40,109 nucleotides of DNA from a virus. Below are positions 2,616-31,599 of the stretch, piece by piece. The stretch is from the UHGV virus genome UHGV-0115014. One strand, written 5' to 3'. The first letter of the stretch is position 1. The number at the start of each line of letters is the position of its first letter. The position numbers were made by a program, and so were the translations under genes. Below the pieces are notes generated by a model. It was not told where the DNA came from and made no database searches. It saw only the letters and a program-made list of their open reading frames with translations.

Positions 2616-2874
2616 AAACCACCCCACAACATCCTATGCCGCTATAGTCGCCACGGCGAAGGCCGTTACCTTTTGTGATACATTGGTCCCTGCGAACCGC
2701 GATCCTTGCACGTTCAACATCACCAGAAGCAACATCCATACACTGAAGCCAAAGGTGAGCGGCAATGCGGAATTGCCCTTTTTTCTCTCTTTCAATCGCG
2801 CGTTTTTCGATCTCTATCGCCGCAGGAGTAACGGCGACAATCTTTGACGGACTGCGCATTGAAACCTTATTCAT
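2608..2874 (-). CDS. Hypothetical small protein
   Basis: Table ORF 2608..2907 with start moved to internal ATG (MNKVS); same strand as and overlapping MTase gene start; no recognisable domain. Confidence 0.35.
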   Translation of the reverse strand: MNKVSMRSPSKIVAVTPAAIEIEKRAIEREKKGQFRIAAHLWLQCMDVASGDVERARIAVRRDQCITKGNGLRRGDYSGIGCCGVVYD

Positions 2875-3016
2875 GTGATATTTTTCAAGTCGGCTTAACT
2901 TTCTCACTTAATCCAACCCTCTCTGAAAATTAATGCCAGCAGATAAAGCCATGCTGAAACAGAGGCCAGGAATAAGTACCATCCTGACCATTTGCTCCAG
3001 TGCCTTAGCAGCGCAC

Positions 3017-3265
3017 TCATGCAGCGTTGCTCACGGGACGATATACACGTTGCTGAACAGGAGGCTTTTTACCCTGGAACTCTGCCGGGCTTGCTGCCTG
3101 ACGTTCATCAAGCCAACGCTCAACTTCATCACGGTTCCATGCGCAGCGTTTATCGGTGATATACCAGCGTTTAGGAAATTCCCCTGCGCGCTCCATACGG
3201 TCGATAGTGCTCCATGACAGTGGAACCACCGCCAGGAGTTCCTTCTTACCTAATGCACCTTTCAT
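3017..3265 (-). CDS. AlpA-family HTH regulator / excisionase-like protein
   Basis: 82 aa; pattern LAVVPLSWSTIDRMERAGEFPKRWYI...AWNRDEVERWL resembles MerR-like AlpA/Xis proteins that accompany P4-type integrases. Confidence 0.65.
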   Translation of the reverse strand: MKGALGKKELLAVVPLSWSTIDRMERAGEFPKRWYITDKRCAWNRDEVERWLDERQAASPAEFQGKKPPVQQRVYRPVSNAA

Positions 3266-5881: not shown

Positions 5882-6466
5882 TTATTGTTTGTTTTTTTCG
5901 TTCTGGTTGATGACAAATTCAATGTAACTTTCGATCTTTGCTTTCTCGGTTTCTGGTAACAAAGCGTAGCGCGAGCGGTCATAGTTGATAGTCGCAGGGT
6001 CGTGCGGGTGAATCAGTAATTCATAGCCGTGACGCCCGAATGCGGATGCAACATTCTCCAGGGTGGAAATGGAAACGCTGACCTCATTGTTTAACAGGCG
6101 GCTGATTGTCACCTGGGCGACGCCGGATGCGCGGTGAAGTTTTCCCTGCGTTGAAAGGTCGCGGCTTTCGCTCATCCAGCGTTCCAGGTTGTGAGCCGCC
6201 AGTTGACCAATGTCGCTTGGTCCGACAGGCTGAAAACCTTCCTGAGAAAGCGAGCGATCGATATCAAGCCAGTTACGGGGTTTATTGGCGGCAGCTTCAA
6301 TTTTTCGCGCAACCTGGTCGCCGATAACCTTCTTGCCAAGAGCCCAGCGGTTTACCAGATTTGCCTGAGTTCCAAGTTTTTCAGCCATCCGCGTCTGAAC
6401 ACCATTGAATTCACGGTCGATCAAGTCGTTGAGATTTTGCCTGCGGACGTCCTGGATACTTTTCAT
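5882..6466 (-). CDS. Phage repressor-like protein with two HTH (XRE/Cro-C1-type) domains, no S24 peptidase domain
   Basis: 194 aa; two helix-turn-helix blocks (GVQTRMAEKLGTQANLVNRWALGKK and ASGVAQVTISRLLNNEVSVSISTLENVASAF); divergent from Cro-like gene; followed by intrinsic terminator. Confidence 0.7.
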   Translation of the reverse strand: MKSIQDVRRQNLNDLIDREFNGVQTRMAEKLGTQANLVNRWALGKKVIGDQVARKIEAAANKPRNWLDIDRSLSQEGFQPVGPSDIGQLAAHNLERWMSESRDLSTQGKLHRASGVAQVTISRLLNNEVSVSISTLENVASAFGRHGYELLIHPHDPATINYDRSRYALLPETEKAKIESYIEFVINQNEKNKQ

Positions 6467-10040: not shown

Positions 10041-10055
10041 TTACCACAACGGTAA
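10041..10055. promoter_or_regulatory. TTACC-N5-GGTAA palindrome within direct repeat upstream of terminase small subunit
   Basis: TTACCACAACGGTAA inside repeat GGTA(N)CTATTACCAC x2, 18 bp before ATG 10073. Confidence 0.4.
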
Positions 10056-29473: not shown

Positions 29474-29770
29474 ATGCAAGCTATAGGATTCATTGTTTAT
29501 ATCGTCGTTGGTCTTTTTCAGTTGGCAGCAATTATGGCTGGGCTTGAATCATGGTGGGGGTTGCACTGGGTAATTGCAGCTCCCGTTGCTTTTGTCGTGA
29601 GTTATATTCCGTTTGTTGGAGCGATTGTTGGTATGATTGGCGCTGTGGATGTATGGCGGTGGGAGTGGTGGCAGGCTGGCCTTCTCTTCTTTGGTGGGAT
29701 CATCTTTGCTATTGTCTGCGGTGGAATGTCATCATTTTTCGAACGGCTATCATTCAGAAAAGGAACGTGA
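29474..29770 (+). CDS. Small integral membrane protein (about 3 TM segments)
   Basis: 98 aa, strongly hydrophobic; stop codon lies inside a GTGACATGTCAC palindrome. Confidence 0.5.
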   Translation: MQAIGFIVYIVVGLFQLAAIMAGLESWWGLHWVIAAPVAFVVSYIPFVGAIVGMIGAVDVWRWEWWQAGLLFFGGIIFAIVCGGMSSFFERLSFRKGT

Positions 29771-29801: not shown

Positions 29802-29963
29802 TTAACGAATGCCACCGCCACCCGGGCGGGAATCCGCAGAACGCCCACCGCAGCGGGAGCCGTCAGCGGCAGTATCGCTGTCGTGCTGACAACGACCGGC
29901 AAAGGCCTGAGTTGAAGCTACCAGAGACAACAAAACGAACAGTGCAGCAAATGCTTTTTTCAT
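29802..29963 (-). CDS. Small secreted peptide (signal peptide plus 31-aa Cys-containing mature part)
   Basis: MKKAFAALFVLLSLVASTQAFA signal peptide with AxA cleavage motif; TTGACG-N16-TATAGA promoter-like sequence upstream on minus strand; antisense-overlaps alternative plus-strand ORF 29772..29915, so strand assignment is uncertain. Confidence 0.35.
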   Translation of the reverse strand: MKKAFAALFVLLSLVASTQAFAGRCQHDSDTAADGSRCGGRSADSRPGGGGIR

Positions 29964-30032: not shown

Positions 30033-30057
30033 CACAAAAAAGCCCGCGGCGCGGGCT
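30033..30057 (-). terminator. Intrinsic terminator after YafO-like gene
   Basis: Minus-strand GCCCGCG-CCG-CGGGC hairpin followed by TTTTTTGTGG; overlaps stop codon. Confidence 0.6.
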
Positions 30058-30602
30058 TATTCCTTCCATTTATCAGAAAAAAGATCTTCTTCTAAAGGCA
30101 TTGGTTCTGTTTTTGTTTTCTCAAAGAATTGATAACTGATAGTGATTGCTGCCTCTTTAAACTCTTCTTGCTCAGTTATGTTGTGGGCATCTGCGTCAAC
30201 AAAAAACATAACCAGCGCATCACGATTGTGATTTACCGAATAAACTAAAAAGCAATTACTTGTTGGTATGCATTTTACTTGCACAGACGCTATTTTTTTC
30301 CATGCATCCCAAGATGATTTTTTACCAGTGTGTTTTTTATCACTATCTTCTGGAATATAGTCTTGGTTATCGACATGAGTATGCCTGACATTTAGTTTAA
30401 GCATTTCTGTCGGACGAGCAAATGCAGCATCTTTACCAAGAGATGGATGGTATCCCGTTTTCCAATACTGGGTAAAGGCATCAGATACTTTCTTCAGCTC
30501 AAGATCAGATGCACAAAGGGCCGAGAAATTTTGCGTATGCAATACTCGACCCTTATATCTGACAATTTGATTTTTATCATTCTGCGACGCAGACGAACTC
30601 AT
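30057..30602 (-). CDS. YafO-family toxin-like protein
   Basis: Table ORF 30057..30629 with start at MSSSAS; region DAFTQYWKTGYHPSLGKDAAFARPTEMLKLNVRHTHV and FLVYSVNHNRDALVMFFVD aligns with E. coli YafO blocks ADFISYKRDGVLPDIFGRDALY...LIKFERVAHIHL and HLVYCQGAFDEQAWLLIAIL (recalled from memory); intrinsic terminator at 3' end. Confidence 0.45.
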   Translation of the reverse strand: MSSSASQNDKNQIVRYKGRVLHTQNFSALCASDLELKKVSDAFTQYWKTGYHPSLGKDAAFARPTEMLKLNVRHTHVDNQDYIPEDSDKKHTGKKSSWDAWKKIASVQVKCIPTSNCFLVYSVNHNRDALVMFFVDADAHNITEQEEFKEAAITISYQFFEKTKTEPMPLEEDLFSDKWKE

Positions 30603-30756
30603 AATTTTCCTTATTGTTACGAGAATCAAAGAAAGCGCGGGATACGCGACTTGCGTGATCTTTTGTCATAGTAACTTTTACGCACTCTACGCTTCCATTG
30701 AAAGAACGTCTTGCGGCAGCTTGCGCTCTACGCATCTGCAATTTTTCGTTTCGCAT
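30577..30756 (-). CDS. Small basic ORF upstream of YafO-like gene (candidate antitoxin or leader peptide)
   Basis: Unlisted 59-aa ORF MRNEKLQMRRAQAAARRSF...; overlaps start of YafO-like gene in another frame; speculative. Confidence 0.2.
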   Translation of the reverse strand: MRNEKLQMRRAQAAARRSFNGSVECVKVTMTKDHASRVSRAFFDSRNNKENYEFVCVAE

Positions 30757-30816
30757 GACATTACCTCATATCTCATAAGTTCATTACACGGATTAATAAA
30801 AATGAAACCAATCCGT

Positions 30817-30831
30817 TTACCCTTGAGGTAA
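30817..30831. promoter_or_regulatory. TTACC-N5-GGTAA palindrome upstream of YafO-like cassette
   Basis: TTACCCTTGAGGTAA about 60 bp upstream (minus strand) of small ORF start 30756. Confidence 0.4.
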
Positions 30832-30903
30832 TAGTACGCTATTCACCCACAGTCTGCAATCTGTACAGAATTATTTAAAGGCACATCCCTGTGCCGCCGC
30901 CCG

Positions 30904-31599
30904 TCAGAAGAACCCTGCCTTGTCGTTGATGTACTCCGCGTGCGTCTGGATATCACGCAGGCATTTGCTCACACCGACGATGTAACAGAACATGGTGGTC
31001 AGCTCCGCCGCCGCGCCCGATACGTCGTGCCCGTCGTCCTGTAACTGGTTCAGCAGATTCATCAGCAGTGAGTTCTCCGTCAGGCCGAGAACACCAGACG
31101 GAGAATGAATCAGGCTGCGGTAGCCGGGCTTCAGCGGGGCACTGTAGGTTTTGTTCTCTATCTTCATTGCCTGCATTACTGCTGACGCCGTGGCGTTGGC
31201 TACCTGGTCGGCAACCATCTTTATGCGTTCTTCCTGCGGTAGCGAGTTTTTAATGTAACTTCCGGTGCGGCGGATCTGAGGAAGAACCTCACCTGTAACC
31301 CATTTACGAAAGCGGTAGGGGATAGTGCCTGGTGTCACCGCATCGCGGCAGCGGAGGATCAGTGTGTAGAGGCCTGACTCGGAGATGATGATCGATTCTT
31401 GCTCACCGCCAGGGGTGTCGGTTGAAGCGACGCCCTTCTCATCATCATCAAGTTTTCGAACAGCATCTCGATGGTTTGCTATGCCTATAGCCCGACAAAC
31501 ATCTGAAGCGATAAACCATGGCTCACCATTAATGACGATTACTCGTATATCGGCTTGGGATTCGAAAGAAAAAATGGACGTGCTTTTTGTAGCTGTCAT
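30904..31599 (-). CDS. Bro-N domain protein (antirepressor-like)
   Basis: 231 aa; N-terminal block VIVINGEPWFIASDVCRAIGIANHRDAVRKL is a Bro-N/antirepressor-type signature; C-terminal 70 aa are paralogous to ORF 32747..33004. Confidence 0.7.
   Translation of the reverse strand: MTATKSTSIFSFESQADIRVIVINGEPWFIASDVCRAIGIANHRDAVRKLDDDEKGVASTDTPGGEQESIIISESGLYTLILRCRDAVTPGTIPYRFRKWVTGEVLPQIRRTGSYIKNSLPQEERIKMVADQVANATASAVMQAMKIENKTYSAPLKPGYRSLIHSPSGVLGLTENSLLMNLLNQLQDDGHDVSGAAAELTTMFCYIVGVSKCLRDIQTHAEYINDKAGFF

Follow-up and report, generated by a model that had tools for sequence, protein, structure and literature searches.

The window analyzed here, a stretch of 40,109 nucleotides (nt) from the virus genome UHGV-0115014, belongs to an epsilon15/phiV10-like (Uetakevirus) Escherichia coli prophage and carries a compact two-gene cassette on its minus strand. 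We read this cassette as a type II toxin–antitoxin-like moron under phage-operator control, with a probability of roughly 0.6. The larger gene encodes a long-form relative of the YafO toxin; the smaller, which overlaps the start of the larger, encodes a basic protein of 59 amino acids (aa) that is the candidate antitoxin. The observed and computed evidence comprises the homology and fold of the larger protein, the gene architecture, the conserved pairing of the two genes, selection acting on the small open reading frame (ORF), and the multiplicity and placement of an operator-like palindrome. The elements of the cassette are as follows:

30057..30602, minus strand: YafO-like toxin ORF, 181 aa; long-form YafO family with a RelE/HigB-type fold, a putative mRNA endonuclease
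30577..30756, minus strand: small partner ORF, 59 aa, basic; candidate antitoxin
30058..30040, minus strand: predicted intrinsic terminator with an 8-pair stem (6 G-C), a 3-nt loop, and a T-run, overlapping the toxin stop codon
30831..30859, minus strand: sigma-70-like promoter, with −35 TTGCAG (30859..30854), a 17-nt spacer, and −10 TACTAT (30836..30831)
30817..30831, no strand: palindrome TTACC-CTTGA-GGTAA, a copy of a phage-wide 17-bp operator-like site

The layout is that of a type II system: two small, co-oriented, overlapping genes, one of which encodes a protein with a toxin fold, lie between one promoter-like region and one terminator. In the ORF listing the small ORF overlaps the toxin start by 26 nt, and this overlap would couple its translation to that of the toxin gene. 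Shine–Dalgarno sequences are present for both ORFs (GAGG ahead of the small one), and the predicted hairpin at 30058..30040 closes the two-gene unit. The 59-aa protein has an isoelectric point of 9.9; the 181-aa protein is approximately neutral, with an acidic C-terminal third. An earlier reading of the DNA, made from the sequence only, had already described the basic 59-aa ORF overlapping the toxin start, the cassette's own terminator, and the palindrome upstream, all of which were recovered here; its toxin length of 182 aa was an overcount, the ORF of 546 nt including a stop codon. The putative promoter falls below the stringency of a consensus scan. However, an element of the form TTGnnn-N17/18-(TAATAT/CAAAAT/CAGAAT) abutting the palindrome is retained in 8 diverged loci; in the window, the last T of the −10 element is the first base of the palindrome. 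Searches of the region recovered no Rfam family at threshold and no tandem repeats, and thus no sign of an RNA antitoxin or a repeat array.

The resemblance of the larger protein to YafO is statistically sound at the profile level only. The Pfam model YafO_toxin (PF13957) matches residues 46–148 of the window protein with 23.4 bits (expectation value, E, of 6.6e-5), and it matches all 25 of the aligned relatives (E ≤ 0.01). Precomputed PF13957 matches are also present on close relatives, one of which (P0041) scores 26.5 bits. A profile of the aligned relatives, searched against 1.84 billion representative sequences, retrieved 70 proteins, the tail of which consists of canonical YafO proteins of 131–143 aa (E 1e-6 to 1e-3); the seven tail proteins scanned against PF13957 all scored 56–100 bits. 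Profile–profile comparison by hhalign of the family with eleven short tail proteins (~130–150 aa) gave a probability of 99.7% (E 5e-27) over 129 columns, aligning query positions 19–167 with canonical YafO positions 2–132. The homology to bona fide YafO proteins thus extends over the whole domain. The sequence-only reading was correct in proposing this homology and placed its extent too low, at about 100 residues; the alignable span is ~130–150. The four YafO sequence blocks that it had quoted proved accurate, as all four occupy the proposed columns of a joint alignment with K-12 YafO. A match of the family profile to K-12 YafO alone (E 0.0066 over 50 columns) covers the first three.

In this joint alignment, which includes seven bona fide YafO-family proteins together with K-12 YafO, F43, G56, and H76 are invariant, and at least 90% of the sequences, long and canonical forms alike, share V20, Y46, P64, S115, Y121, and H140. 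The family motifs F..Y, G[KR]D, RP, HxH, [ST]SD..LxY, and AH are all kept. Because these conserved residues are shared by both forms, the plausible catalytic histidines are retained. The AlphaFold2 (AF2) model of the toxin (predicted local distance difference test score, pLDDT, 79.7; predicted template modeling score 0.75) begins with two helices, followed by a sheet of four strands and a C-terminal helix, and shows the RelE/ParE superfamily fold. A search of viral structures in BFVD with this model returned no significant match; a PDB sequence search with the toxin likewise returned none, and no solved YafO structure was found.

Three features, apparent from the alignment, define a long-form YafO subfamily: a disordered leader of ~18 aa at the N terminus; a stretch carrying W98 and W101 that is inserted behind the HxH strand and measures ~20 aa here, more in some relatives; and, at the C terminus, ~14 conserved residues forming a tail with the motif MPLxEDLFSDKW. 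Both terminal extensions had been noted previously, and the leader and tail bear this out; the internal insertion had been missed, and the C-terminal helix belongs to YafO itself. The subfamily comprises proteins of ~165–195 aa in ~60 clusters at 50% identity, found on prophages of several types. Scanning GTDB genomes with the family alignment matched 52 patterns, none of which was confirmed by tblastn. One locus (L046, 588–1124 and 1084–1542, minus strand) contains a second, divergent long-form paralog ~2 kb from the first, with 28% identity and a Pfam YafO_toxin match (E 6.5e-5), preceded by an overlapping 152-aa ORF. The C-terminal SMSREQVISLSDRMY of that ORF's product was likened by eye to TMTKDHASRVSRAFF of the 59-aa protein; this likeness was discarded, with hhalign giving only E 0.25.

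The small ORF falls in PHROG 6685 (function not known; 151 bits), it has 13 close homologs at 75–95% identity, and the ratio of nonsynonymous to synonymous substitution rates is 0.17–0.36 in unambiguous pairs, indicating purifying selection. A small ORF overlaps the toxin start in 46 of 46 close loci (45 by tblastn, and L051 by ORF listing), and none of the 46 has an intact toxin without it. In one of these loci (L049, 3001–3535), which holds the only disrupted toxin of the set, the toxin appears as two tblastn pieces in different frames; the small ORF upstream is intact, at 98% identity. Among more distant long-form relatives, an upstream ORF of 55–88 aa, overlapping or abutting the toxin gene, is present in every locus examined. 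These distant pairs occupy varied settings:

L005–L007: in a siphovirus tail-gene cluster
L051–L054: beside a tailspike gene
L055: in the interval of a P2-like prophage bounded by the portal gene and gpA (the gpA–gpQ hotspot)

The co-occurrence of toxin and partner therefore spans genomes and mobile contexts that include podovirus, siphovirus, P2-like, and other backgrounds. Because every locus examined, across several phage types, has an ORF upstream of the toxin, the 59-aa protein is likely the cognate antitoxin, an assignment that follows from architecture and linkage and not from homology or a modeled interface. The protein itself has no significant Pfam match and no PDB match, and comparison with K-12 YafN gave an hhalign probability of 0.2%, that is, no similarity; no YafN-family (Phd/YefM-type) antitoxin lies upstream. 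The prior judgment that the partner is not recognizably YafN- or RelB-like therefore holds. Modeled alone, the 59-aa protein is mostly low-confidence or disordered (pLDDT 54.7), with an N-terminal helix only. In two loci, the small-protein gene is duplicated in tandem (L052, 2636–2812 and 2856–3023; L051, 1630–1845 and 1889–2056): the 55-aa copy overlapping the toxin is preceded by a 58-aa paralog ending in NHEFVL, and in L051 this paralog is joined to a further small ORF. A C-terminal (Y/N)EF(V/C) motif is kept in these small proteins even away from the overlap with the toxin gene.

Comparison with characterized systems places the cassette near, and outside, YafN–YafO of E. coli. The toxin is homologous over nearly the whole length of YafO (PF13957), with the motifs F..Y, G(K/R)D, RP, HxH, (T/S)SD-LvY, and AH in common, and in both systems the partner gene lies directly upstream on the same strand. 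However, the window toxin has 181 aa as compared with 132 aa in YafO, the difference being the leader, the W98/W101 insertion, and the MPLxEDLFSDKW tail, and the basic 59-aa partner has no similarity to the 97-aa YafN. The toxin is a member of the YafO family by profile, motif, and fold, and the cassette would act in the manner of a RelE/YafO-type type II module. Because the partner differs, the cassette is not a YafN–YafO system. The settings differ as well: yafNO lies in the chromosomal dinB-yafN-yafO-yafP cluster, an operon under LexA/SOS control, whereas the window pair lies in a moron slot of a prophage and has a phage operator at its promoter. Sequence identity of the window toxin to HigB2 (of HigB2/HigA2), HigB1, RelE, YoeB, and YafQ is 3–16%, and structural matches by Foldseek are not significant. 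In higBA the toxin gene leads, and here the gene of the small partner does; and the known partners of HigBA/RelE-superfamily toxins carry ribbon-helix-helix, helix-turn-helix (HTH), or Phd-type DNA-binding domains, none of which is detectable in the window partner. The genes old and tin of P2 (in the gpA–gpQ hotspot) and gop-beta-cII of P4 are likewise small, acquired, swappable modules in a variable region of the phage, and the P2 hotspot is where the distant relative of the window pair in L055 sits. The window cassette differs from these exclusion genes in that its promoter carries an operator shared with phage early and late genes. The P2 gpA–gpQ interval is a documented reservoir of anti-phage systems (PMC9122126; PMC13586616), among them the exclusion genes old and tin (PMC9122126). 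No anti-phage phenotype is known for the long-form YafO family, and no PADLOC model covers it.

The palindrome upstream of the cassette is one of many. The window contains 11 perfect copies of TTACC-N5-GGTAA and 16 with at most one mismatch, as compared with 0.73 expected, and none of 100 shuffled sequences reached 16. The extended consensus of the 17-bp site is ATTACC-N5-GGTAAT. The copies, and the regulatory gene that lies among them, are as follows:

5748, 5810, 6522, 8853, 8915, 10041, 13201, 30817, 31869, 31962, 33081: perfect palindrome copies
6570, 6907, 10059, 33313, 36431: one-mismatch palindrome copies
5882..6466: two-HTH repressor gene

Every perfect copy is intergenic, many of them occurring in pairs 18–93 bp apart; the copy at 10041 is inside a long TTG-initiated reading frame, yet upstream of its first ATG. 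Two copies lie downstream of the two-HTH repressor gene, and the divergent region between this gene and a 76-aa ORF, taken as Cro-like from its position only, holds one perfect and one one-mismatch copy. Further copies precede early blocks; one heads a long rightward gene block starting near 13.2 kb, two lie between the anti-repressor gene and its divergent neighbor, and one stands ahead of a tail-fiber gene. Related E. coli and Serratia prophages have conserved the site as well. A repeat of the form ATTACC...GGTAAT was reportedly noted as a putative operator in the epsilon15 genome paper. From this distribution, the recurring 17-bp palindrome looks like a distributed operator network of the prophage.

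In aligned upstream regions of diverged cassette loci, the only conserved islands are the palindrome, the −35/−10 geometry, and the ribosome-binding site. Because the cassette promoter carries one copy of a genome-wide operator-like site, the evidence for phage control is stronger than a single site could provide. The sequence-only reading took the site as a sign of prophage control, and the 16 near-perfect copies point the same way. The site is nonetheless part of the phage backbone and not of the cassette: phage phiv142-3, which has no cassette, carries it in the same slot, and the cassette copies of other phage types lack it, so that it represents a backbone site at the edge of the module. 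As those other copies do not have this operator, the predicted control of the cassette would have been acquired locally and would not be inherent in the module. Since the site adjoins the −10 element and extends over the predicted start of transcription, a protein bound there should repress; the regulator would most plausibly be the two-HTH repressor encoded at 5882..6466. Cassette expression is thus probably tied to the phage switch.

Some lineages carry a different palindrome. TGACG-N4-CGTCA occurs once each in L005 (4779–4792), L006 (4714–4727), L007 (3837–3850), L042 (2759–2772), and L048 (2735–2748), always ~25–95 nt ahead of the small ORF. These loci represent two phage backgrounds that are unrelated, and the sequence is found neither elsewhere in the ~370 kb of examined loci nor in the window. 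From its position, this sequence may be the module's own autoregulatory operator in those lineages, lost in the lineage of the window. A second inverted repeat near the cassette promoter (30785..30819) was considered as an operator and dropped, as it is not conserved in other cassette loci.

From these observations we infer the RNase activity, toxicity, neutralization, operator-binding protein, and biological role of the cassette. A bicistronic mRNA would start inside the operator, at a promoter belonging to the phage backbone, and coupled translation would yield first the small protein and then the RNase. The 59-aa protein would most likely bind and neutralize the RNase; when the balance tips, the RelE-fold enzyme, with its conserved HxH and AH histidines, would cut mRNA and stall translation. 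A phage regulator at the 17-bp site would hold the cassette down and release it together with early and late genes on infection or induction. Transcription would then follow the phage switch and not autoregulation, unlike that of an ordinary toxin–antitoxin operon. Candidate roles include the exclusion of other phages, abortive infection, prophage stabilization, and host shut-off in lytic growth.

Several results weigh against a type II toxin–antitoxin-like cassette under phage-operator control. The Pfam score of the window protein narrowly misses the gathering cut-off of 25 bits; the profile search that had been proposed as a check thus succeeded by E value and fell short by score. BLASTP against K-12 YafO is not significant (E = 50), NCBIfam gives no match, and PADLOC-DB v2 gives none for the toxin, the small ORF, or two neighboring small genes. 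Only one of five AF2 models is confident. The structural comparison also proposed earlier yielded a RelE/HigB-fold model; in a Foldseek search of the PDB, HigB2 and YoeB ranked first without reaching significance (E 0.05–0.17). Ribosome dependence is disputed even for E. coli YafO (PMC8546651). The small protein is basic and unlike any known antitoxin, most antitoxins being acidic; the partners in distant loci are not recognizably related to it, its relatives being detectable within the close clade and not beyond it. In the window, the cassette carries no autoregulatory operator of its own, only the phage-wide site being conserved. Finally, if the operator is bound by repressor in the lysogen, the cassette would be silent there, a poor fit with exclusion or addiction functions that require expression in the lysogen.

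One alternative we consider unlikely, though it fares best among those weighed: that the larger protein is a lytic-phase phage RNase, silent in the lysogen and switched on with the early and late genes, which cuts host or competitor mRNA and so favors the phage or excludes co-infecting phages, the small protein serving as a timing brake or specificity factor. The placement of the operator against the −10 element and over the predicted start is the geometry of repression, and the same site recurs at the immunity region, the early blocks, the ~13.2-kb rightward block, and the tail-fiber gene. In the related phage ZX5, moreover, repressor overexpression shuts off transcription of the lysis genes (PMC9782041). 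A gene adjoining the cassette encodes a 53-aa membrane protein (29802..29963, minus strand; PHROG 14503, category moron), with a promoter-like TTGACG-N16-TATAGA and without the phage operator. The operator is thus not universal for accessory genes, and the wiring of the cassette is specific; the 53-aa moron may therefore be expressed in the lysogen, unlike the cassette. However, the protein that binds the site is a candidate only, and an immunity operator would not usually be conserved, as this site is, in prophages of different genera. The module does without the operator in other phage types, some copies having a private palindrome instead, and a distant relative sits in the P2 gpA–gpQ interval, a documented hotspot of defense genes that in P2 itself contains old and tin.

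A more elaborate proposal, which we hold to be doubtful, joins these elements: the pair would be wired into the lysis–lysogeny switch, held by the repressor and firing only on infection or induction, as a phage-deployed mRNA shut-off RNase with the small inhibitor as its timer and as the founder of a new antitoxin family.

It is improbable that the genes are a real pair and not a toxin–antitoxin system, that is, a non-toxic or domesticated RelE-fold regulator or ribosome-binding factor with an unrelated, co-transcribed small protein. The very remote similarity to characterized YafO would be consistent with this, as would the subfamily's additional insertion and C-terminal tail, the basic small protein whose sequence is not recognizably conserved among the partners of distant homologs, and the failure of any defense or antitoxin model to match either protein. 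Yet the subfamily keeps, without variation, the residues conserved in YafO, among them the HxH strand and the AH histidine; the strict upstream-overlapping order of the genes is maintained in phage backgrounds unrelated to one another; and the sole disrupted toxin keeps an intact partner, the reverse never having been seen. It is hardly credible that the palindrome is an inverted repeat due to chance and that the cassette is autoregulated like an ordinary toxin–antitoxin operon: generic 5-N5-5 inverted repeats are common (1.7 per kb) and TGACG-N4-CGTCA is a possible autoregulatory site in some lineages, but the excess of copies over both expectation and shuffles, conservation of the site in otherwise diverged upstream regions, its presence in the same slot of a phage without the cassette, and the lack of TGACG-N4-CGTCA in the window copy all argue otherwise.

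The origin of the toxin–antitoxin-like cassette can be read from related phages. Escherichia phage TL-2011b matches the region at 98.8% identity, a prophage of E. coli S1-CAM-04-C matches it at 100%, and the cassette is present in 61 of 5,426 complete E. coli genomes. In the Uetakevirus relatives phiv142-3, ZX5, and phiV10, the flanks match and other DNA lies between them. The GC content of the cassette is 39%, as compared with 49–51% in the flanks. Low GC content together with replacement of the slot in related phages indicates that the cassette is a horizontally acquired moron in a variable slot. The extent of the acquired DNA and the features at its upstream edge are as follows:

30084..30815: cassette-specific DNA, delimited by blastn against phiv142-3 (homology stops at 30083 and resumes at 30816)
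30880..30895, minus strand: hairpin GGCACA-GGGA-TGTGCC, 3′ of the Bro-N/anti-repressor gene, between that gene and the cassette promoter
30904..31599: Bro-N/anti-repressor gene, upstream of the cassette promoter

The stem of the hairpin at 30880..30895 is retained through paired substitutions (ggcaca..tgtgcc vs. ggcgca..cgcgcc) in aligned loci L035, L042, and L043, pointing to conservation of a terminator or RNA element at the upstream edge of the slot; the T-run of the hairpin is weak. In phiv142-3 (L002, ~2657–3095, minus strand), an unannotated ORF of ~146 aa, with an AGGAG ribosome-binding site and a TTG start, occupies the same slot after the annotated 55-aa Orf9, the deposited Orf10 being in another frame. 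A by-eye likeness of this 146-aa ORF to the toxin was rejected, there being no Pfam match and no hhalign support; the slot in phiv142-3 may hold a different small-plus-large gene pair. The cassette also neighbors a gene for a 98-aa membrane protein (29474–29770, plus strand; PHROG 3075) with a weak holin-like Pfam hint.

Annotation of the cassette is uneven. RefSeq names the two products in TL-2011b "type II toxin-antitoxin system YafO family toxin" and "hypothetical protein", and because of this the core toxin identification is already known. Nearly all E. coli genomes among the matches listed have the toxin alone annotated, with the small ORF omitted; in NZ_CP145703.1 (1373018–1373563; L058), for example, the NCBI annotation pipeline PGAP annotates a YafO-family toxin. 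No published description of the cassette was found in the literature searched. The novelty is modest and lies in the long-form subfamily, its mostly unannotated small partner, and the phage-operator control.

These data overturn no current idea and provide a useful annotation fix and a tractable lead. Because the 59-aa ORF is mostly unannotated, the toxins appear as orphans in databases and in annotation-based toxin–antitoxin surveys, and recognition of the missed partner corrects this. YafO is among the less well-characterized RNase toxins of E. coli, and a distinct long-form subfamily bears on that gap. A promoter with an operator common to early and late genes offers a testable case of a toxin–antitoxin-like module tied to the lysis–lysogeny switch; if the pair is indeed wired into that switch, the small partner would define a new antitoxin family for YafO-type toxins.

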